The translations under genes and the position numbers were made by a program. A DNA stretch of 64,000 nt from a bacterium (lineage in GTDB: Bacteria > Vulcanimicrobiota > Xenobia > Xenobiales > JADMJV01): assembly GCA_030149525.1 (NCBI GenBank), contig JASBRJ010000054.1:599-64598 (forward strand). Direction: 5' to 3'. The notes beneath the pieces were generated by a model. The model searched no databases. It had not been told where the DNA came from and saw nothing but the letters and a program-made list of their open reading frames with translations. Below are positions 24,553 through 64,000 of the stretch, one piece after another (position 1 is the stretch's first letter; the number at the start of each line of letters is the position of its first letter).

Positions 24553-24867
24553 TCATACACCTGTAATAAGCAGATCTAATGCGGCGAGTATCTCTGTTCG
24601 AAAGTTAGAGAGATTCTCGACCTGGCTGCTCAACTCACGTACGGGTATACCAGCGAGTTGGGGGGTGACCGCCACATGGTTCTGGCCCTGAACCGGGAGA
24701 ACCGGCATAAGTTGGGAGAGGATAATCTCTTTGGACTCGGTTTCGACAGCGAGGGGTATCACCACACGAGTTCCAATTGAGTCAAGAAGCTCCGCCTGAA
24801 CGTCAAGTAGATAAGGGAATCTCTTCTTGGTGGAAGCGTTCTTGTTTTCATAAACATCGAATTGCAC
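24553..24867 (-). CDS. ccdB: CcdB-family toxin (DNA gyrase poison)
   Basis: MQFDVYENK...RFPYLLDVQAELLDSIGTRVVIPL aligns by eye with F-plasmid CcdB ([36 protein letters not shown]). Confidence 0.8.
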   Translation of the reverse strand: MQFDVYENKNASTKKRFPYLLDVQAELLDSIGTRVVIPLAVETESKEIILSQLMPVLPVQGQNHVAVTPQLAGIPVRELSSQVENLSNFRTEILAALDLLITGV

Positions 24868-25118
24868 TAGAAGCTTCTCATTCCATCGCTGAACACGCCG
24901 TACTCTTCAACGTCCTGATTGTATTTGGCGATCGCATTCTTATTTTCTTCAAGCCAACTCTGAGCCTTAAGCTCTTTCACTTTCTGGGCCAATGATTGCT
25001 CCAGGACGGCAGAAAGGTTGATTCCCAACTGCTTAGCGTGGGCGAGTAGCTCGCTATTGACGCTCAGGTTCGCGGACTTCTTTGGCGCGCTCGAATCGTA
25101 AAGGTTAGACATGCGCAT
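24867..25118 (-). CDS. ccdA: CcdA-family antitoxin
   Basis: 83 aa, overlapping ccdB by 1 nt. The C-terminal WLEENKNAIAKYNQDVEEYGVFSDGMRSF resembles CcdA (WKAENQEGMAEVARFIEMNGSFADENRDW). Confidence 0.75.
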   Translation of the reverse strand: MRMSNLYDSSAPKKSANLSVNSELLAHAKQLGINLSAVLEQSLAQKVKELKAQSWLEENKNAIAKYNQDVEEYGVFSDGMRSF

Positions 25119-25149: not shown

Positions 25150-25588
25150 AAATCAGAACTATATGGCGTAGGTCGCGGTAGGACCACCGGTCACCCGGCG
25201 CCCCCCGCACAGATCAGGACGTGAGGAATTACCTCATCCGGCTCCTGCCTCAGGTAATGACGCCAAACTGCTGTGTCGGATAAGGATGGACGACTTTGGG
25301 ACGGGGGATGTATTTCTCCGCCAGGCGTGTGATTCGTTGCCAGCTACATCGGTGTTTCTGGCTTCTCCGCCGTAACGACCGACACCAGAGGCGAACCACC
25401 TGATGTCGGAACGACTCGAGGGCCCTAAAGTTCATCGGAATACCGTGATACTGAAAGTAACCTCGGACGACCTGATTCTGCCATTTCCCGACGTCTGGTA
25501 CGCGGTCATGCAGGCGGCGACGGAGCTCAAACTTGAGCTCCCGTAGTTTGTCTCGTTGGCGCTTCTTCATCGTTTTGCGGAGTACCAT
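25150..25588 (-). mobile_element. Group II intron 3' remnant: maturase C-terminal fragment plus a domain-V-like motif, with the 5' part truncated
   Basis: The ORF at 25250-25588 encodes ...RGYFQYHGIPMNFRALESFRHQVVRLWCRSLRRRSQKHRCSWQRITRLAEKY, a typical C-terminus of group II intron RT/maturases. Five nt after its stop, the minus strand reads GAGCCGGAUGAGGUAAUUCCUCACGUCCUGAUC (25244..25212). This has the AGC triad, an inner hairpin and an AC bulge as in domain V. No RT domain is found upstream. Confidence 0.55.
25250..25588 (-). pseudogene. Truncated group II intron reverse transcriptase/maturase (C-terminal X/En-less fragment only)
   Basis: Only ~110 aa corresponding to the maturase C-terminus are present. 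The region upstream on the minus strand has no RT motifs. Confidence 0.55.
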
Positions 25589-27601: not shown

Positions 27602-28885
27602 GTGAATTCCCTAGACGAAGAGCAAGAACTGGATCGCCCTCACAACCCTCTGGGCGATTGGCTCCAATCCTTGAGCTCCGCTGGTGAGATGAAGTCGGAG
27701 GGGAGTGGTTTTAGCATTGCCCAGGAGAAGGCCTGGGAAAAGCTTGGCGCCTTTCAGCTTCCCTTCGAGAGCGCCTGGGTCCTCAAAGTCGTGCAAGCCG
27801 CGGTGGTAGGTGGGGCGTTGTCCATTGAAGTTGTGCAGACACGCTCGGAGACTCATTTTACTCTTTCGAGTCTGGCGGGAGTGACCTGGAATTCCGTGCA
27901 AAAGCTCTTATTCGAAGTGGATTCCGCTTCCGAATCTGCATCGAGCCATTTGGCGGTCGCGTTTCGAACACTTGCAAAATCTGTGGGAAATCCGTTCTTT
28001 GTGAACTTTCCCGGCGACTCTGTCGTGGTTTGGGACGGTTCAGCTTTTCAGGCGGCCGATCCAACATCGGATATCTTCGAGATCAAAATTTCCCACTTTC
28101 TCTCCACCGGAGTTTTTAAAGCGATTCGCTTCATGACCGGGATTCAAAAGGCGTTGTGTGACTACTGTCATCTTTGCCCCATACCGCTTAGCATCGATAA
28201 TCGAGCGATCAATTCTCTGGTGGACGATCCCCTCTGTAGGCCTTCTGCGGATTGCTCGCTGCTAGCTTTTCAGACAGCGAAGGTAAGCGACGATCTACCG
28301 AGACTCAAGCTTCCCTCGACCGACTGGAACGCTCTTCACCCGGACGGTGCTAGACCATCCTTAGATTTTGAGTCGGCCTTCAGAGAGAGCGACGAAGAGT
28401 GTGGTGCGGGGATGCTGCTCTGTGGCTTCCGAAAGGTTATTCACGGGGGTGAGCAATACTTTCGGTCCTACCGAAAGTCGAGTGAGTTGATTTGGCTACG
28501 CCACGGTGTGATAGTGGCCAGAGAATCTCTCAATATTGCCCAGTCGGTGGCACTCCTGCTGATAGTCAATGCCGAGTGCCTGGATACCGACCTGACCGGC
28601 TTCGATTTGAGAAAAAACGATCGCAAAATGAGCCGTCGCAACGCGGCTATTGAATCAGCTTTTTCAGCGCTGAAGGAATTGAAGAGTAGGAGCCGGGTCA
28701 AGCTTCAGGGACGCAATAGCTTTATGTCCTTACTCGGCTGGGGCGGCATCGCGTTAACGGTCTTGATTCCTCCCGCAGGCCTCGCTCTTTGGGGGCTCAG
28801 AGCTTCTGCGCTGCGCGAAGACCAGGAGCGGATTGCCAAGGAATTCGACAACGGCCTGAGCCGTGTTTTTGCGAATCTCCGATAG
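27602..28885 (+). CDS. Hypothetical protein, 427 aa, with a C-terminal transmembrane segment
   Basis: Protein-like ORF with a C-terminal hydrophobic stretch (FMSLLGWGGIALTVLIPPAGLALWGL). It immediately precedes the PilT-like pair. Confidence 0.5.
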   Translation: MNSLDEEQELDRPHNPLGDWLQSLSSAGEMKSEGSGFSIAQEKAWEKLGAFQLPFESAWVLKVVQAAVVGGALSIEVVQTRSETHFTLSSLAGVTWNSVQKLLFEVDSASESASSHLAVAFRTLAKSVGNPFFVNFPGDSVVVWDGSAFQAADPTSDIFEIKISHFLSTGVFKAIRFMTGIQKALCDYCHLCPIPLSIDNRAINSLVDDPLCRPSADCSLLAFQTAKVSDDLPRLKLPSTDWNALHPDGARPSLDFESAFRESDEECGAGMLLCGFRKVIHGGEQYFRSYRKSSELIWLRHGVIVARESLNIAQSVALLLIVNAECLDTDLTGFDLRKNDRKMSRRNAAIESAFSALKELKSRSRVKLQGRNSFMSLLGWGGIALTVLIPPAGLALWGLRASALREDQERIAKEFDNGLSRVFANLR

Positions 28886-29052: not shown

Positions 29053-30123
29053 ATGGCCACTCAATTTACGGAAATCCGCCTGGATTCACTGCTCCTTCAG
29101 GCTCGAGAAATGGGAGCGGAAGACATCCACCTGCAGGCGGGCTCTCCGCCTCTTTTCAGAGTTTTCGGAGACCTCAAGGCGCGCCAGAATAAGAACGTCA
29201 GCATGGAGGCGTTGTACGATCTTTTGGGTCGAATGTTGGAACCGGAACAACTCCCTCTGCTGGAGAAGCAAAGGCGGCTACGCTGGGTACATTGGGCCTC
29301 CGACGATCGGCTGGTGCGGTGCCAGGCTAGCAAATGGCCCAGCGGCTGCACTCTCACTCTGCGCCTCCTCCGAGAGGAACCGCTCCCGCTAGAAGAACTT
29401 GGGTGGGACTCGCACCTGCCCAACCTGCTTGAAGGCTCGGGCCTGATACTTCTGACAGGTCACGCTGGAAGCGGGGTGAGTACGACCCTGGCCTCACTGG
29501 TGAATCTCCTGAATATGACTTCCCGACAACACATTTTGTGCTTGGAGCATGATCTCGAGATAATGCACCCCTACAAGCTCTCTATGATCAACCAGCGCTG
29601 TTTCGATCGCGACTTCGACTGCTGGAAACAGGCGGTTGGTCAGGCCGCCCGCCAAGAGGTAGACACTCTAGTGCTTCACGACGCCCCGTTGAAGGAGGTT
29701 TGGAGCGAGCTTTGTTCTTTTTTAGACGGCGGTGGTCTAGCACTTGTGACCATGAGAGCGTCAAGTGTTTACCGGGCCCTGGAAAGCCTACCCGACTTCT
29801 ATCCGCCCGCAGAGCAACAGTGGGTCCGCCCTCATCTTAGCCGATACCTCGCCGGTGCCACCCATCAGCGCTTGGTGACGGGCAAGCAGGCTCGATACAT
29901 GGCAGGCGCGCTGCTGACCGCCACATTAGGCATCAGAAATCTGTTACTTGAGAACAAGCTTCGGCAGCTCTCTCGCGCCATGGCCTCGAATCCGACCTGC
30001 CGAACTTTGGAGCAAAGCCTTTGCCTGCTGGTGCAAGACGGCACTCTCCGGGCAGAGGAAGCCCTGGCCGTCAGCGACTACCCCGAAGAACTGAAGAGTT
30101 TACTCGCTGGAGGTGCAAGTTGA
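29053..30123 (+). CDS. PilT-like type IV pilus retraction ATPase homologue with a degenerate Walker A (Lys replaced by Val) and degenerate Asp/His boxes
   Basis: PilT N-domain signature DIHLQAGSPPLFRVFGDL is present. The Walker A region reads GHAGSGVSTTLASLVNLLN where canonical PilT has GPTGSGKSTTLAAMLDYLN. EDPIEF is replaced by EHDLEI, GEMRD by HDAPL, and the His box is absent. Confidence 0.7.
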   Translation: MATQFTEIRLDSLLLQAREMGAEDIHLQAGSPPLFRVFGDLKARQNKNVSMEALYDLLGRMLEPEQLPLLEKQRRLRWVHWASDDRLVRCQASKWPSGCTLTLRLLREEPLPLEELGWDSHLPNLLEGSGLILLTGHAGSGVSTTLASLVNLLNMTSRQHILCLEHDLEIMHPYKLSMINQRCFDRDFDCWKQAVGQAARQEVDTLVLHDAPLKEVWSELCSFLDGGGLALVTMRASSVYRALESLPDFYPPAEQQWVRPHLSRYLAGATHQRLVTGKQARYMAGALLTATLGIRNLLLENKLRQLSRAMASNPTCRTLEQSLCLLVQDGTLRAEEALAVSDYPEELKSLLAGGAS

Positions 30124-31187
30124 GGCAAAACTGGAATCTGAGAGAGCTCTTCACATTGGCTTTAGAAGCCGGAGGCACAAGCCTTCATCTCAACAGCGCA
30201 CTCCCGGCGGTGGCCAAGACCAAAGGCGGCTTGGTGCCACTGACCGAGCAATACCTGACTCCAGACGACTGTGAAGACATAGCGGCCACGCTTTCGACCC
30301 AGGCCGTACATCGTCTGAAGCAGGAGAGTTTCTATGGCCTGGAGCCGGGAATTTGTCGATATCGAGCGGAGCTGTATCGCCAACGAGACGTAATCAGCCT
30401 GATTTTTAAGCTGGCCCCCTGGCGACTGCGCCCTCTAGAAGAACTAGGGTTGCCGCCGAACGTTCCCGAGCTTCTACAGGCACGGCGAGGGCTCATACTC
30501 GTATGCGGCCCCCAGGGAGCGGGCAAGAGTTGGACTCTAGCCGCTCTGCTTGACTATATACATCGGCAGCGGTCTGTTCGGAGCCTTGTGCTGGGCGACC
30601 CGTTGGAGTTTGAGCTTGAAGCCCGACTTGGCATGACAACCACTCAGTCGGTGAAGCAGGGTCACTGGGAGGAGGCCTTAGACCAGATAGAATTCTCCGA
30701 CGTGGACGTGGTAGCGCTCGACGATTTTCCAGTTCGCAGAACCCTTGAAAGAGCACTTGAGTTGGCCGAGGCCGGCATCCTGGTTCTGGCCACTGTTCGC
30801 AACGCCCTCGACGTTAGCAGCAGTCTCTTTGAGCTGTGGACCAAACACCCGGCCTGGCTTCATCACAGCCTGAGAGAACGAGTCAGCCAAGCCCTCCAGG
30901 CAATAATTTTTCAGAAGTTAGTAGCGGGCATGACAGACCAGGAAAAATTCCCGGCAACCGAGATTATGTTGGCGAGTCCCCCGATGCGCCACCTCATCCA
31001 AGAAGAGCGATTCATTCAGTTCTACAACTCTATCCAAACTGGTCTGAACTCCGGGATGCACACTCTTGAGCAATCCCTGTTCGAGTTATTCCGTTCCGGA
31101 TGTATCGACGAGAAAACGGCCCTCTCCGAAACCCGTTACCCGGACGACGTGAGACGAAGCATCGGGACGTGGCGGAGTCGAGATTGA
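30120..31187 (+). CDS. Second PilT-like ATPase homologue, with Walker A intact and the Walker B Glu and His box degenerate
   Basis: Probable TTG start overlapping the upstream stop (TTGA). GLILVCGPQGAGKSWTLAALLDYIH is the Walker A. DVDVVALDDFPV replaces DPDVILVGEMRD, and ATVRN replaces GTLHT. Confidence 0.65.
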   Translation: MRQNWNLRELFTLALEAGGTSLHLNSALPAVAKTKGGLVPLTEQYLTPDDCEDIAATLSTQAVHRLKQESFYGLEPGICRYRAELYRQRDVISLIFKLAPWRLRPLEELGLPPNVPELLQARRGLILVCGPQGAGKSWTLAALLDYIHRQRSVRSLVLGDPLEFELEARLGMTTTQSVKQGHWEEALDQIEFSDVDVVALDDFPVRRTLERALELAEAGILVLATVRNALDVSSSLFELWTKHPAWLHHSLRERVSQALQAIIFQKLVAGMTDQEKFPATEIMLASPPMRHLIQEERFIQFYNSIQTGLNSGMHTLEQSLFELFRSGCIDEKTALSETRYPDDVRRSIGTWRSRD

Positions 31188-37933: not shown

Positions 37934-39430
37934 ATGAGCGATACGCAAACAAAGAACGCCCCGGCCAAAGGACAACCCAAGACAGCCGTCCCCATTACCG
38001 TGGCCCACGGTGATGGAATCGGACCAGAGATCATGGGTGCAACTCTGCACATACTTCGAGAGGCGGGAGCTCTACTCGATATTGAAACTATCGATATCGG
38101 CGAGAGCGTCTACAAAGCCGGCTTCTCCTCCGGAATCAAGCCCGAAGCTTGGGATTCGCTCCGTCGGACCGGGGTATTTTTGAAAGCCCCCATCACCACT
38201 CCGCAGGGTGGCGGATACAAGAGTCTCAACGTGACCGTGAGGAAAAGCCTCGGTCTCTATGCGAATCTCAGGCCTTGTGTCGCCTATGCGCCCTACGTTC
38301 ACACCAAGCACCCCGGCATGGACGTCGTTATTGTGAGGGAGAACGAAGAAGACTTGTACGCAGGTATTGAGCACCGCCAGACCGGTGAGGTCTATCAGTG
38401 CCTCAAACTCATCTCTCGACCAGGTTGTGAGAAGGTTGTGCGATACGCTTTTGAATTCGCCCGGTCTCAGGGTCGGAAAAAAGTGACTTGCTTTACCAAA
38501 GACAACATCATGAAACTGACCGACGGTCTCTTTCATAAAGTCTTCGACGAAATTGCTCAGGAGTATTCCGACATCGAAAACGAGCATTGGATCGTGGATA
38601 TCGGAGCGGCGAAGTTGGCGGATACCCCAAGTCAGTTCGACGTTGTGGTGATGCCCAACCTTTATGGGGATATTCTCTCCGACGTGGCCGCTCAAATCGC
38701 AGGCTCCGTGGGGCTGGCAGGCTCGGCCAACATCGGCGAACACTGCGCCATGTTCGAAGCCATTCACGGCTCGGCACCTCGTCGCGCCGGTCAAAACATG
38801 GCCAATCCTTCCGGTCTGCTCCAAGGCTCGCTTTTGATGCTTGATCATATCGGACAATCCGATGTTGCGGCCAGAATCCAAGATGCCTGGCTCAAGACTC
38901 TCGAAGACGGCTATCACACCTATGACATCGCGACTCCGGAGCACACCAAGGAAACCGTCGGTACGAAAGAATTCGCAGAACATGTTGTGAAGCGTCTAGG
39001 TCAGAAGCCGGAGAAACTCCAGGGGCGAAAGATGTCGGGCTCGAGCTTTAAAGTCCCCACGGCCAAGAGACCTCTTCTCGACCGCGCGTCGCTGAAGAAA
39101 ACCACCCTGGGCGTCGACGTCTTCCTACACTGTTGCGACACCGATGCCGAGAAGCTCGGTACGAGACTTCATGCCAGCTCAACCTCCCAACTGGAACTGA
39201 AGATGATCACCAATCGAGGTCAGAAAGTTTGGCCCGACGGAATGCCGGAAACCTTCTGCACCGACCATTGGCGTTGCCGCTTCGTTCATCCGGAGGGCAA
39301 GGAGATCACCAATCGAGATGTGGTGGAACTGTTGGATAAGCTAGAGTCCAACGACTTCGACTTCATTAAGACCGAGCACCTTTGCAGTTTCGACGGAGAG
39401 CGCGGCTTTTCCATGGGACAAGGCGAGTAA
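37934..39430 (+). CDS. icd: Isocitrate dehydrogenase, homodimeric ICDH/IPMDH family, with a ~140-aa C-terminal extension
   Basis: GDGIGPEIM, LRPCVAY, NLYGDILSD and GSAPRRAG motifs are present. AAAGGAG Shine-Dalgarno upstream. Confidence 0.85.
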   Translation: MSDTQTKNAPAKGQPKTAVPITVAHGDGIGPEIMGATLHILREAGALLDIETIDIGESVYKAGFSSGIKPEAWDSLRRTGVFLKAPITTPQGGGYKSLNVTVRKSLGLYANLRPCVAYAPYVHTKHPGMDVVIVRENEEDLYAGIEHRQTGEVYQCLKLISRPGCEKVVRYAFEFARSQGRKKVTCFTKDNIMKLTDGLFHKVFDEIAQEYSDIENEHWIVDIGAAKLADTPSQFDVVVMPNLYGDILSDVAAQIAGSVGLAGSANIGEHCAMFEAIHGSAPRRAGQNMANPSGLLQGSLLMLDHIGQSDVAARIQDAWLKTLEDGYHTYDIATPEHTKETVGTKEFAEHVVKRLGQKPEKLQGRKMSGSSFKVPTAKRPLLDRASLKKTTLGVDVFLHCCDTDAEKLGTRLHASSTSQLELKMITNRGQKVWPDGMPETFCTDHWRCRFVHPEGKEITNRDVVELLDKLESNDFDFIKTEHLCSFDGERGFSMGQGE

Positions 39431-43013: not shown

Positions 43014-44519
43014 TCATTCTCCCTGTCCGAGCGAGTAGCCACGCTCTCCGGCAAAAGAGCAAAGATTCTCAGTTTTGATGAAATCGTAGCCCCGTTCCGA
43101 GAGTCGGGTGAGCAATTGAAGGATGTGGGCGTGGTTCACCGCCGAACCCTCGGGATGAACGAATCGGCATCTCCAGTGATCGGTGCAGAACGTCTCCGGA
43201 AGGGGATTGGGCCAAACCTTCTGGCCCCGATTGGTGATCATCTTGATCTTCAATTGCTCCGTGGAAGCCTCTGTGAGACCCAGTCCAAGCCTCTCGGGAT
43301 CAAGATCGGTGTGATGGAGGAAGACGTCAACGCCCATCGTTTCCTTGCGAAGTGCCTTCAGATCGAGAGTGGTTCGCTGAATCTTGGGCTTGGCAACCGA
43401 AGAGTTTTCCGATTTGAGATCGCGAACCGTCAACTGCTTTGGCGCCGAGCCCAGTCTCTCGACAACAGCATCAGCAAACTCGTCTGTACCGACCAATCTG
43501 CGGGTGTGCTCTTGGGTGGAAATGTCGAAGGTGTGAACACCGTCTTCCAGAGTTCGGAGCCAGGCTTTCTGAATTCTTGTTGCCACCTCGGGCTGGCCGA
43601 GATGAACCAACATTTGATTGGCAGCCTGGAGCAGCCCCGACGGATTGGCTTGATTCTTTCCGGCAATCTGGGGAGCCGAACCGTGAATCGCCTCGAACAT
43701 AGCACAGCTCTCCCCGATGTTGGCAGAACCGGCAAGCCCCACCGAACCGGCGATCTGTGCGGCCACGTCGGAGACGATGTCGCCATACAGATTGGGGGTC
43801 ACGATCAGATCAAAATCTTCCGGAGTGTCGGCCAGGCGAGCAACTCCGATGTCAATAATCATGTGGTCCTTCTCCAGCTCGCCGTACTCCGAACCGATCT
43901 CATCAAAAACGCGATGAAAAAGACCGTCGGTAAGCTTCATAATGTTGTCCTTGGTGAAGCAAGTGACTTTTTTTCGACCGTTGGCGCGAGCGTACTCAAA
44001 GGCAAACCTGACGATTTTCTCACAACCCGGTCTGGTGATGAGCTTCAAGCATTGATAGACTTCACCGGTCTGGCGATGCTCAATACCGGCATAGAGGTCC
44101 TCTTCATTCTCCCTGACGATGACCACATCCATACCCGGGTGACGAGTTCTTACGAAAGGTGCGTAAGCGACGCATGGCCTGAGATTGGCGTAGAGCCCAA
44201 GGCTTTTTCGGATGGTGACATTCAGACTTTTGTAGCCTCCACCTTGGGGAGTTGTAATAGGACCCTTCAGGAGAACCCCGCTCTCTCGAATCGCCTCCCA
44301 CGCCTCAGGCCGAATGCCGGAGGTGAATCCCTGCTTGTAGACTTTCTCTCCGATATCGATAGCGGTAATATCGAGCGATGCACCGGCTTCTTTGAGAATT
44401 CGCAGAGTGGCGGACATTATTTCCGGCCCGATTCCGTCACCGTAAGCCACCGCAAGGGCCGGCTTCGTGAGCGTGCCGATCTCCTGACGTTCTGTCCTGT
44501 TTTCTAGAGCAATATTCAT
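43014..44519 (-). CDS. icd: Isocitrate dehydrogenase paralogue (~80% aa identity to the copy at 37934-39430)
   Basis: Same motifs and the same C-terminal extension as the first copy. DNA identity to copy 1 is roughly 75%, which is not recent. Confidence 0.85.
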   Translation of the reverse strand: MNIALENRTERQEIGTLTKPALAVAYGDGIGPEIMSATLRILKEAGASLDITAIDIGEKVYKQGFTSGIRPEAWEAIRESGVLLKGPITTPQGGGYKSLNVTIRKSLGLYANLRPCVAYAPFVRTRHPGMDVVIVRENEEDLYAGIEHRQTGEVYQCLKLITRPGCEKIVRFAFEYARANGRKKVTCFTKDNIMKLTDGLFHRVFDEIGSEYGELEKDHMIIDIGVARLADTPEDFDLIVTPNLYGDIVSDVAAQIAGSVGLAGSANIGESCAMFEAIHGSAPQIAGKNQANPSGLLQAANQMLVHLGQPEVATRIQKAWLRTLEDGVHTFDISTQEHTRRLVGTDEFADAVVERLGSAPKQLTVRDLKSENSSVAKPKIQRTTLDLKALRKETMGVDVFLHHTDLDPERLGLGLTEASTEQLKIKMITNRGQKVWPNPLPETFCTDHWRCRFVHPEGSAVNHAHILQLLTRLSERGYDFIKTENLCSFAGERGYSLGQGE

Positions 44520-61769: not shown

Positions 61770-61924
61770 TCTGAACGCACCAAGCCGATTTAAGCTAATT
61801 CTTCCGTTGATGAAGCCATCAACCGATTCTGCACTATATGGACAGACGAAACGTTGTGCGCCGGGTTAGTCTACCCCTATACCAGAGGATAGGTTCATGC
61901 CGCTTTGGCCGTGAGGTCGGTATC

Positions 61925-62215
61925 CTAAGCAGCCAGCAGAGGCCCCTGGCCGAGAACTCGTCGCACGGATTCGGAAGTGCCTACCAGGCGCAAGGAGCCG
62001 CCGTGTCGGGCGAGATAGTCGGAGATGGAGTTCAGAAGCTCTACCCCAGTAACATCCAGGCTCGTGACTCCCGAAAGATCCAGGGCGATCTTAATATGCC
62101 CTTCACTGACAACTCGGTCGAGGCTTTGCAGTAGCTCTCGGTAATGCTCCATGTCGACTTCTCCATCCACCACGATGATGGGGATTCCGAACAGATCGTT
62201 TCTTAAAATGCTCAT
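61925..62215 (-). CDS. STAS-domain anti-sigma-factor antagonist-like protein
   Basis: 96 aa. LDLSGVTSLDVTGVELL is a SpoIIAA-like pattern. Confidence 0.65.
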   Translation of the reverse strand: MSILRNDLFGIPIIVVDGEVDMEHYRELLQSLDRVVSEGHIKIALDLSGVTSLDVTGVELLNSISDYLARHGGSLRLVGTSESVRRVLGQGPLLAA

Positions 62216-62376
62216 CTTCTTTAGTCCTCCCAGACCTTAATAACCAAATTCTATCGCCTTCGTTCGCTCGGGTCATCGGACATTTGTCGGACAGCAGGGT
62301 GGGGGAATCCCTACTTTTTTCGGCGAGCATTTCTTCCAACGGAAGGACCGTGAACATACCCTTCAAACTCCTTCAA

Positions 62377-64000
62377 ATGCGTATGGACAGGCTTTTGGAA
62401 CTGCTCGGAGAGACCGAAGTCTTCTCCTCACTTGAAAACGCCGAACTTGTCCAGCTCGCCCGTTCCATGGAGTTCCGAGAGTTTGCTCCCGGCAAGGTCT
62501 TAGTGCAGCAGCACGAGATGGGAGAAGAGTTTTTCATCCTGGTCGAGGGCTCGGCCCAGGTGGTGATGCAGAGCGAGCTCTTGAGAACCGAACGTCATGT
62601 TTTAACGCTTCAGGCGGGCCAGTCTTTCGGCGAAACCTCACTTCTCACGCGAGAACCCCGAACCGCTACGGTGAAGGCCCTGGAGAAAACCGTGTGCGCT
62701 GTGCTGAACCGCGAGAATTTTCAGAACTTGTTTGAACAGGTTCCTTCGGTCAGCCGCACCATGGCGCGCTACCTAGCTCAACGTCTAACCGCTCAGTGCC
62801 GCCTAGACGGCCCCGCTTTCGTGAGCCTCAATCAGTTTCCTTATCAACCGGAACTCTTCAGAATGGTCCCGTTGGAGCTTCTGAAGCGTTGTCGGGGTGT
62901 TCCGGTTCAACTCAACGGCCGCCTCCTGACTATCGCGATGGTCCAACCCGACAACTTCAGTTTGATCCGGCTACTTCAAGAAGAACTGGTCGGTTTCCGA
63001 CTCCAGTGCGCCGCTTGTTCGGCCGACGACTATCTCTCTTACATGGCCCAACACGAGACGGCTTCCGGCCGAACGGTCAGCTTCGTGGAGAGCCACGACC
63101 CTCTACCCAGCGTGGTCAGGCTGCTCACCAACCTGCCGTCGGGGACATTGGTTCTCGATCCGGGAGCCGAAACTCAAAAAGTCTACCTCCAAAAAGGGGG
63201 GCGTCTCAGCCCACTCCTCCCCTCCCCTTCGGACCAATTTCTTCGTCAACTGGAGTCGACTTTAACCTCCTTTTTCCTAACTCATCAGGCGGTGGAGAAC
63301 GTTGTCCGCTCAATCAGGGTCGACGGACAATCCTACCTCCTTCAGGTGAGCCGCTTCGAGCACCGATCAGGTTTTCGATACTCTCTTCGACTCTCTGAGA
63401 CCAGGATACAGCCGCTCAAGCACTTCTTCCCTGCCGGGGAAATGAGAGCTGCCGTGAGGGAGGTGCTCGCTTCACCTCACTCCTTCTTGCTCATCGACGG
63501 CAGTCAAAGAAACGTGGCGGAAGCGGTTCACAAGTCCATCTTAGGAGAGCTTGTGGAAGACCTGGGAGCCCAAGGGGTTCTCTATCTTGGCGACCTCTTA
63601 GAGAGTCAGCAGGTGCCCTGCACATTGGCAGTTCACGATCCGAAGCTCGCTCCTTATCTCGAGACGGCCTTCCATCAGGGCATCACCGTGGCCGCGCATC
63701 AGGGCATCGGCCGAAAGCAGTGGAAGGAGCTGATCAGATTCCAGGGCCAACTCCCCTCCGTCCTGGCGGTTTGGAAAGAGGGACCTCTCATTCCCGCCCT
63801 GGATTACCTGATCAAAGAAGTGGCTGCAGGAGACAGCCTGCTTTACGGCTTCCATCTGTTGACCCATAAGATGGTGAGGCAGGCTTGCCCTTATTGCCGT
63901 CAACCCTACAAGCCTTCTGAGAAAGTCGGTGCAGAACTGGGATGCCGCGGTCTAGACAATGAAGACGCCTTGTATTTTCGGTCCGGGGGCTGTGAACATT
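62377..64000 (+). CDS. cNMP-binding-domain + GspE N-terminal domain + degenerate GspE/PilB-like ATPase with a C-terminal CxxC zinc finger. The 3' end is truncated by the window edge.
   Basis: I translated this myself from the ATG at 62377 and found no stop through 64000 (541 codons). It contains a CAP-like cNMP-binding region (FGETSLLTREPRTATVKAL) and a T2SSE_N-like region (LELLKRCRGVPVQLNGRLLTIAMVQPDNFSLIRLL). The Walker A position reads LLIDGSQRNVAEAV where GspE has GPTGSGKT. The tail carries CPYCRQ...GCEH. The ORF is absent from the supplied track. Confidence 0.6.
   Translation, partial: MRMDRLLELLGETEVFSSLENAELVQLARSMEFREFAPGKVLVQQHEMGEEFFILVEGSAQVVMQSELLRTERHVLTLQAGQSFGETSLLTREPRTATVKALEKTVCAVLNRENFQNLFEQVPSVSRTMARYLAQRLTAQCRLDGPAFVSLNQFPYQPELFRMVPLELLKRCRGVPVQLNGRLLTIAMVQPDNFSLIRLLQEELVGFRLQCAACSADDYLSYMAQHETASGRTVSFVESHDPLPSVVRLLTNLPSGTLVLDPGAETQKVYLQKGGRLSPLLPSPSDQFLRQLESTLTSFFLTHQAVENVVRSIRVDGQSYLLQVSRFEHRSGFRYSLRLSETRIQPLKHFFPAGEMRAAVREVLASPHSFLLIDGSQRNVAEAVHKSILGELVEDLGAQGVLYLGDLLESQQVPCTLAVHDPKLAPYLETAFHQGITVAAHQGIGRKQWKELIRFQGQLPSVLAVWKEGPLIPALDYLIKEVAAGDSLLYGFHLLTHKMVRQACPYCRQPYKPSEKVGAELGCRGLDNEDALYFRSGGCEH

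Follow-up and report, generated by a model that had tools for sequence, protein, structure and literature searches.

A predicted cyclic-nucleotide-binding pseudo-ATPase of the GspE/PilB superfamily from a bacterium of the Vulcanimicrobiota

In a stretch of 64,000 nucleotides from a bacterium of the Vulcanimicrobiota (contig JASBRJ010000054.1 of the assembly GCA_030149525.1, in the following referred to as the window), we have characterized a gene on the forward strand of which the 5' 541 codons are contained in the sequence (62377..64000, +). Its product, the target of our analysis, combines an N-terminal cyclic-nucleotide-binding (CNB) domain with the C-terminal half of an MshEN domain and with a body of the GspE/PilB type that has retained its fold and its tetracysteine motif and in which all four catalytic motifs are replaced. 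We have little doubt that the protein is a pseudo-enzyme of this identity. The whole explanation that we favour, although with distinctly less assurance, is that of an adaptor or scaffold controlled by a cyclic nucleoside monophosphate (cNMP) rather than a motor.

Between 62377 and 64000, translation yields 541 sense codons with zero stops in a frame that runs past the end of the window, and the chance of such a stop-free run at uniform codon usage is about 5e-12. The initial annotation had described this frame as a missed gene that is free of stop codons and frameshifts and absent from the list of open reading frames (ORFs), and had interpreted the listed ORF at 62796-63398 as an out-of-frame shadow, all of which is borne out by our analysis. 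The latter ORF is located on the same strand in a different frame (offset 2), and the 541-codon frame is missing because the list omits ORFs that run off the source. A protein in public collections, P0001 (609 amino acids as called), is 100% identical to the target over the whole stretch, and all 1651 bases that the DNA of its locus (L001) shares with the window are identical. The complete C-terminus, which was to be sought by extending the contig, could be obtained from these sequences and, since they are identical over the shared stretch, we place the end of the gene at about 64179, some 179 bases past the window, resulting in a full protein of about 600 residues. The public start of P0001 is a GTG at 62350, a codon that reads GAG in an orthologue of 79% identity (L002), in which the ATG codons at 62377 and 62383 are both conserved. 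The start at ATG 62377 that had initially been chosen is thus plausible, and the deposited N-terminus of P0001 is probably 9-11 residues too long. Residue numbers such as G94, A390 and C513 follow P0001 and correspond to the numbering of the initial annotation plus 9. The assignment of the gene is based on the open frame, the identity to L001 and P0001, the conservation of the start codon and the substitution rates described below. In public sources it is either unannotated or nameless.

The order of domains, with a CNB domain followed by a T2SSE_N (MshEN) domain and a GspE/PilB-like core, is found as originally proposed in Pfam and hhalign searches and in Foldseek comparisons of an AlphaFold model. 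In the profile searches that had been suggested as verification, the models cNMP_binding and MshEN score above their cut-offs whereas T2SSE remains below, and the homology of the core is instead evident from profile-profile and fold comparisons. The CNB domain is recognized by PF00027 at residues 34-121 (62476..62739, +) with an E-value of 4e-19 and 68.8 bits compared to a cut-off of 27.5, and the structural domain including its N- and C-helices extends from about 62377 to 62808. Both by sequence and by fold, the N-terminus matches structures of CNB domains from the cAMP-dependent (PKA) and cGMP-dependent (PKG) protein kinases in the PDB, with a superposition of the modelled domain on the CNB-B domain of PKA RIα (5kjy) resulting in a template modelling (TM) score of 0.83 and a root mean square deviation of 2.3 Å. 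The phosphate-binding cassette FGETSLLTREPRTATV (62626..62673, +), with its Gly-Glu pair and its Arg-Thr-Ala sequence intact, matches, position by position, those of cGMP- and cAMP-dependent kinases, of which PKG shows the form FGERALLYDEPR[ST]A[ST]. Across the family described below, no variation is seen at G94 and E95 and hardly any at R104 and A106. The Arg-Thr-Ala sequence is found in cGMP-selective and in cAMP-selective domains alike, and the sequence is for that reason compatible with either ligand.

The second domain is detected by the Pfam model MshEN (PF05157) at residues 148-227 (62818..63057, +) with an E-value of 1e-9 and 38.6 bits compared to a cut-off of 23.1. The match covers only the α/β half (MshEN_C, similar to the N1 domain of GspE) that follows the c-di-GMP-binding helical bundle of a complete MshEN domain, and the bundle itself is missing. 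In the CNB-fused proteins, the place of this sensor bundle is taken throughout by the CNB domain together with its long C-helix. The MshEN_C-like domain is also included in the Foldseek alignment to the GspE-GspL complex (4pht), which spans 473 columns. It is followed by a module resembling the N2 domain of GspE and PilB (63097..63399, +), in which the QDGR arginine motif is not conserved and which was assigned from hhalign, the family alignment and the secondary structure of the model, and by a RecA-like C-terminal domain of the GspE/PilB type (63427..64000, +) that is predicted to be catalytically degenerate and continues past the window.

For this C-terminal part, the Pfam model T2SSE (PF00437) reaches 16.6 bits compared to a cut-off of 24.9 and matches only the region of the Cys motif, and the NCBIfam equivalogs for GspE and PilB give 12.3 bits compared to 630 and 21.5 bits compared to 676, respectively. 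In phmmer searches of solved structures with the C-terminal ~370 residues, GspE and PilF match around the Cys motif only (E 2.8e-4), and a weak collinear alignment places the target sequence PHSFLLIDGSQ onto PHGIILVTGPT, thus spanning the Walker A region. When the target and its orthologue were compared in hhalign to a set of twelve canonical proteins of the PilB/GspE type without CNB domain, the homology of the core was detected with a probability of 99.5% and an E-value of 1.2e-22 over 416 columns, extending from the MshEN part to the C-terminus. An AlphaFold model calculated from a 97-sequence alignment, with a predicted local distance difference test score (pLDDT) of 89.1 and a predicted TM score of 0.68, replaced an earlier model from two sequences that was discarded (pLDDT 37). 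In Foldseek searches of the PDB, its C-terminal ~400-470 residues match PilF (5oiu, 7e-18) and the GspE-GspL complex (4pht, 8e-18), with PilB (5tsh, 5zfr), GspE (4ksr) and EpsE (1p9w) following within the range of 7e-18 to 1e-15. As judged from the phmmer match, the profiles and the modelled fold, the homology of the part after the CNB domain to GspE and PilB is secure.

All catalytic motifs of this body are altered in family and hhalign alignments. The canonical Walker A sequence GPTGSGKTT is represented in the target by DGSQRNVAE (63496..63522, +), with A390 in the column of the P-loop lysine and E391 in the column of the Thr/Ser, which confirms the replacement that had been read from the sequence initially (DGSQRNVA), and a search for G-x4-GK[ST] across the whole protein, which would have revealed a canonical P-loop elsewhere, found none. 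In the Asp box (GVLYLGDLLES, 63574..63606, +), EDPVEY has become GDLLES with the glutamate replaced by glycine. The Walker B region GITVAAHQGIGRK (63679..63717, +) carries AAHQGIGR instead of MVGETRD, with Gly452 in the Glu column and no acidic residue, and in the His box LPSVLAVWKEGPL (63751..63789, +) the sequence GHLVLTSLHTN is replaced by LPSVLAVWKEG with both histidines gone. With the replacement of all four motifs, the ATPase body is, on the evidence of these alignments, predicted to be catalytically dead. The C-terminal tetracysteine (zinc) motif CPYC...CEHC (63886..64000 and beyond, +) has been kept, in line with the initial annotation. The CPYC codons at 63886-63897 and a further Cys codon at 63991-63993 account for three cysteines in the window. 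Of the fourth codon only the first base (64000) lies in the window, and P0001 confirms that it encodes a cysteine, which forms part of CEHC. Throughout the family, none of the four positions (C513, C516, C548, C551) varies, and they correspond in the alignment to the cysteines of GspE and PilF.

The family itself became apparent when 1.84 billion representatives were searched exhaustively with HMMER, using the part of the target after the CNB domain as query, whereas word-indexed homologue searches had returned nearly only hits to the CNB domain. Among the 174 hits at E ≤ 1e-3, the orthologue alone falls below 1e-30, and the next hits are proteins of ~630-665 residues with the same architecture of CNB, MshEN_C and GspE-like parts. 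A CNB cassette is present in 36 of the 127 full-length hits, of which 16 contain canonical Walker A and Walker B motifs, four retain Walker A only and 16 do not contain a Walker A motif. Their P-loops form a series from GPTGSGKTT via SGRSTT and SG(L/V)(S/T)T to unrecognizable sequences in P0034 and the target, and scores for the NCBIfam GspE model decrease from 479 bits in P0037 to 51 in P0174 and 12 in the target. The most conserved stretch of the sub-family is the linker RYLAxRLxxQCxLTGFRF, which connects the CNB to the N1 domain. In a rough neighbour-joining tree, which carries no support values, canonical CNB-fused proteins are basal and degenerate ones form a nested clade, with the target and its orthologue as a long branch that is sister to two degenerate groups. 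As far as these alignments show, CNB-fused GspE/PilB-like proteins form a family that has apparently not been described before, and among them the target has degenerated furthest. Contigs carrying family members originate mostly from marine (Tara-type) metagenomes, and two scans of GTDB species representatives returned no confirmed relative. A metagenome scan, in which one of the patterns was the CNB cassette, returned mostly generic CNB proteins and was informative only for L019-L024, of which the ~40% identical relatives L022-L024 are truncated before the core and do not have STAS, TerB or cyclase neighbours. The JGI record of P0175, an intermediate that is devoid of the P-loop lysine, reads 'cyclic nucleotide-binding protein/type II secretion system protein E', and the architecture is hence visible in databases, although apparently unstudied. 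Neither fusions of a CNB domain to PilB/GspE nor pseudo-enzymes among pilus ATPases were described in the literature that we searched, an absence that is no proof, and a 2024 review of PilB regulation describes cAMP as acting only through transcription (PMC11656802).

A Walker A motif is also missing from 17 of the full-length GspE/PilB-like hits that carry no CNB domain (including P0043, P0084, P0090 and P0098), in a hit list that is biased by the degenerate query, and the loss of the P-loop in the GspE/PilB family may extend beyond the CNB-fused clade.

Paralogues of the target recur in a cassette found on marine metagenomic contigs (L006-L010, L017-L021), which consists of a divergent TerB gene, one to three genes encoding CNB-MshEN_C-pseudoGspE proteins and a class III cyclase with a CHASE2 domain, to which a WD40-caspase protein (~1000-1060 residues) and a CRP-like regulator are often added (example: L007, 465-11920). 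In L017, a gene for a PilZ protein is located directly downstream in a single case. Among the proteins of such a locus, which are 26-30% identical to the target, group A keeps GK[T] but shows VDD at Walker B, whereas the lysine is replaced by leucine or valine in groups B and C. These cassettes support, at the level of gene content, a link of the family to cyclic nucleotides.

At its own locus, the target gene is divergent from a 96-residue STAS-domain gene (61925..62215, -; PF01740, E 3e-15), the only neighbour that is kept in all orthologous loci (L001-L005). Between both genes we found a conserved non-coding block of 84 bp (62266..62349) that is 88% identical to L002, whereas third codon positions in the genes on either side show only 52-59% identity. 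Within the block, a direct repeat (TCGGACA-N4-TCGGACA, 62276-62293) is operator-like in appearance. On the basis of this conservation, the STAS gene, the non-coding block and the target gene are a conserved unit. A structured 5' leader or riboswitch in the block was considered and is unsupported, with no Rfam match and a fold z-score of -1.5. In proteins of the SpoIIAA/RsbV type, the phosphorylatable serine resides in a DS[ST]G motif. The STAS protein has the sequence LDVTG at this site, with the serine replaced by valine and a threonine following, and the customary control by phosphorylation may thus not apply to it. Genes for GspF/PilC, GspL/PilM or pilins were found neither within ±10 kb of the target in the window and in L002-L005 nor beside the loci of relatives and of two canonical CNB-fused examples (P0037, P0051), whose gene contexts are uninformative. 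A gene encoding 460 residues downstream of the target in L002 is matched by neither Pfam nor NCBIfam models, and in other strains it is separated from the target gene by an insertion.

The replacement of catalytic motifs together with the sub-threshold T2SSE score could also be expected for a decaying pseudogene or a mis-assembled ORF. This reading is effectively refuted by the comparison of the target with the orthologue L002, where the whole gene shows proportions of 0.115 for non-synonymous (pN) and 0.684 for synonymous differences (pS) and a ratio of the corresponding rates (dN/dS, Nei-Gojobori) of 0.068, a value that is approximate since dS is near saturation, whereas the contrast of pN and pS is clear. 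By region, the ratio is 0.056 in the degenerate core, 0.027 in the CNB and 0.023 in the MshEN_C part, the latter being the best-conserved domain between the orthologues with 92% amino acid identity. In addition, the ~600-codon frame is intact in numerous assemblies obtained independently (clusters of 24 and 3 members, with contigs of up to 123 kb), and the Cys motif and the cNMP cassette are invariant. Every domain including the degenerate core is thus, as estimated from these substitutions, under purifying selection and, because this selection is strong and the catalytic motifs are nevertheless replaced, the target is best described as a maintained pseudo-enzyme and not as a pseudogene. The strong constraint on the core, its RecA-like fold and the partial P-loops of some relatives (with arginine instead of lysine, or an intact GK[T]) would also be compatible with a protein that still binds or hydrolyses nucleotides via non-canonical residues. 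We regard this as quite unlikely, since in the target alanine has taken the place of the lysine and glutamate that of the Mg-coordinating threonine, the glycine-rich loop is gone, the Asp-box and Walker B glutamates and both His-box histidines are replaced simultaneously, and there is no alternative P-loop. A role as c-di-GMP receptor via its MshEN domain, as in MshE or PilB, would have appeared attractive from the Pfam match above cut-off, since c-di-GMP is a ligand of this domain in ATPases of the MshE type (PMC5013675), and the initial annotation had assigned the domain to this class. The binding form is, however, defined by two tandem 24-residue motifs in the N-terminal four-helix bundle, with the sequence RLGxx(L/V/I)(L/V/I)xxG(L/V/I)(L/V/I)xxxxLxxxLxxQ occurring twice at a 5-residue spacing (PMC5013675). 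Strict and relaxed regular expressions of these motifs detected none in the target and none in 22 other CNB-fused relatives tested, compared to 33 of 128 conventional GspE/PilB/MshE-type hits. With only the α/β half present and the CNB domain occupying the N-terminal position, the assignment to the c-di-GMP-binding class did not hold, and a function as c-di-GMP receptor is highly improbable.

Two further readings draw on genes found near the target or its paralogues. In the window, the divergent STAS gene is followed by genes for a hybrid histidine kinase-response regulator (HK-RR), a CHASE3-containing methyl-accepting chemotaxis protein, CheW, CheR, a CheA-RR fusion and CheB, and the same arrangement of STAS, target and Che genes was independently assembled in the short contig L001. 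The target could thus be an output or adaptor of this Che/Wsp-like pathway that couples chemoreceptors to a machine of the pilus or secretion type. However, beyond the STAS gene, L002-L005 contain an RND efflux operon and no Che operon, relatives with identical CheB (L011) show the Che operon beside unrelated HK, RR and PMT genes, with neither STAS nor the target present there, and more distant family members never adjoin Che genes. The Che adjacency is therefore specific to this genome and weak evidence for function, and we consider this reading unlikely. Of the functional hint that had initially been seen in the position next to a Che/STAS operon, the divergent STAS gene is conserved, whereas the proximity of Che genes is not. 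Since the relatives carry an RND operon beside STAS, and HK, RR and PMT genes beside the Che operon, the comparison implies that a recent rearrangement would have joined the Che operon to the pair of STAS and target. The junction lies at 61770-61924, between the hybrid HK-RR gene and STAS. A second reading, as effector or sensor in a defence against phages that is based on cyclic nucleotides, be it of the Pycsar type or another conflict system related to it, draws on the resemblance of the CNB domain to that of Pycsar TIR effectors (PADLOC, E 1e-18) and on the paralogue cassettes with their PycC-like cyclase catalytic domain, TerB and WD40-caspase protein. The PADLOC hits are, however, confined to the level of domains, the cyclases are of the CHASE2 membrane-sensor type that is typical of signal transduction, and there is neither a TIR nor a pore or transmembrane effector and no cyclase in the target's own loci, which makes a role in defence very unlikely.

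The preferred explanation of the target as a cNMP-controlled pseudo-ATPase adaptor or scaffold agrees with the initial proposal of an adaptor rather than a motor, a role that would fit the loss of all four catalytic motifs in combination with strong purifying selection. Accordingly worded as a model, a cytoplasmic protein of ~600 residues would have descended from a cyclic-nucleotide-regulated hexameric ATPase of the GspE/PilB type and turned into a pseudo-ATPase, which would not hydrolyse and probably not bind ATP. Binding of cAMP or cGMP to the CNB domain would shift its C-helix and with it the attached, highly conserved N1-like domain. Because the CNB domain replaces the absent c-di-GMP bundle, cAMP or cGMP rather than c-di-GMP is the predicted messenger. 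By analogy to GspE, where N1 docks GspL (4pht), the N1-like domain could gate the interaction with a partner, and it is since the element moved by the ligand corresponds to a partner-docking surface in GspE that we propose a ligand-gated adaptor or scaffold. The dead core, held by the zinc motif, would serve as platform for oligomerization and scaffolding. Candidate partners are the product of the divergent STAS gene, paralogues that are active or semi-active, and the two degenerate PilT-like proteins at 29-31 kb described below. Several points weigh against this explanation. No cyclase is found within 10 kb of the target's own orthologues, and its cyclase link is for this reason borrowed from paralogues. 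No partner-switching kinase or phosphatase was identified, although no systematic search was made, and the STAS protein does not contain the canonical serine. The alignment underlying the AlphaFold model is dominated by canonical ATPases, and the model can thus not show that the degenerate site is empty. The near-saturated dS and the unsupported tree with the target on a long branch add to these reservations.

Second-messenger control of the GspE/PilB family is known directly for c-di-GMP via MshEN, and a CNB domain that stands where this sensor is otherwise located would bring the motor family under the direct influence of one more messenger. The branch without P-loop would exemplify the transition from a secretion ATPase to a pseudo-enzyme, a process that is well studied in kinases and far less in bacterial traffic ATPases, and the gradient from canonical to dead paralogues, including triplets beside a sensor cyclase, would offer a series for testing which scaffold functions survive the loss of catalysis. 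Since the target scores below the ATPase thresholds of Pfam and NCBIfam, automated annotation provides only 'cNMP-binding / MshEN' and misses its GspE/PilB nature. On a wider and clearly speculative scale, it is possible that CNB-fused dead GspE/PilB-like proteins form an unrecognized class of cAMP or cGMP receptors, in which a motor was converted into a ligand-gated ring scaffold that is independent of pili and secretion and in which the MshE-type c-di-GMP sensor was exchanged for a cNMP sensor. The paralogue sets (groups A, B and C and the target) together with CHASE2 cyclases, TerB or STAS might then define a new second-messenger pathway in marine Planctomycetota-like bacteria.

Elsewhere in the window, the ORFs at 29053-30123 and 30150-31187 encode divergent proteins of the PilT family, which score 187 and 195 bits, respectively, compared to the pilT_fam cut-off of 319. 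In the former (+), Walker A reads GHAGSGVST with the lysine replaced by valine, the Asp box shows a replacement of Asp by His, the Walker B Glu is replaced by Asp and the His-box His by Arg. The latter (~30150-31187, +) keeps its Walker A sequence GPQGAGKS and shows replacements of Glu by Gly in the Asp box, of Glu by Asp in Walker B and of His by Arg in the His box. The target had initially been counted as the third secretion-ATPase-like protein with a broken nucleotide site in 64 kb. Three degenerate traffic-ATPase homologues are indeed present, but the site is strictly broken in only two of them, as the protein encoded at 30150-31187 keeps the P-loop lysine. Upstream of the tandem PilT-like pair, a gene at 27602-28885 (+) encodes a protein of 427 residues without Pfam match. 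The window also contains two full-length paralogues of NADP-dependent isocitrate dehydrogenase with a bacterial C-terminal domain (37934-39430, +; 43014-44519, -) within 7 kb. The regions 24553-25118 (-) and 25250-25588 (-) contain what we take, by eye, to be a toxin-antitoxin-like pair of the CcdB/CcdA type and, after it, a fragment similar to the C-terminal end of a maturase from a group II intron.

Compared to the secretion and pilus ATPases GspE/EpsE and PilB/PilF (4pht, 4ksr, 1p9w, 5tsh, 5it5, 5oiu), the target shares the order of N1-like, N2 and RecA-like domains, the fold and the tetracysteine motif. It differs by the absence of Walker A, the Asp-box and Walker B glutamates and the His box, by scores below the Pfam and NCBIfam cut-offs, by its N-terminal CNB domain and by the lack of GspF/PilC, GspL/PilM and pilin genes nearby. 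With the loss of the four catalytic features the target is most likely not a motor, and since it fails both these defining features and the curated thresholds, a classification as secretion ATPase would be inappropriate, although by descent it belongs to the GspE/PilB superfamily. With MshE-type ATPases (PMC5013675) it has the MshEN_C half and an N-terminal second-messenger sensor on a protein of the GspE family in common, but this sensor is a CNB domain and not the four-helix bundle that binds c-di-GMP and carries the two 24-residue motifs. Canonical CNB-fused ATPases (P0037, P0038, P0047, P0051 and others) contain the same three parts, share the helix linking CNB and N1 and belong to the same clade in the rough tree. 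In contrast to the target, which is only 21-24% identical to them and shows none of their catalytic motifs, they keep GPTGSGKTT, EDPVEY, GE(T/I)RD and the His box and reach 460-479 bits on GspE/PilB models. The degenerate groups A, B and C (L006-L010, L018-L021) are, in the neighbour-joining tree, its closest non-orthologous full-length relatives and, like the target, combine a CNB domain with an intact cNMP cassette, the zinc motif and compromised catalysis. Whereas these groups keep P-loop remnants of the form SG(K/R/L/V)(S/T)T and are found in up to three copies next to a cyclase, the target forms a separate long branch with 26-30% identity to them, has degenerated completely and is instead paired with STAS. 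Finally, the regulatory CNB domains of PKA and PKG and the sensors of the CRP family match the target in the CNB fold and the residues of the cassette, but where these proteins connect the domain to a kinase-inhibitory or a DNA-binding output, in the target it is attached to the dead body of a secretion ATPase.

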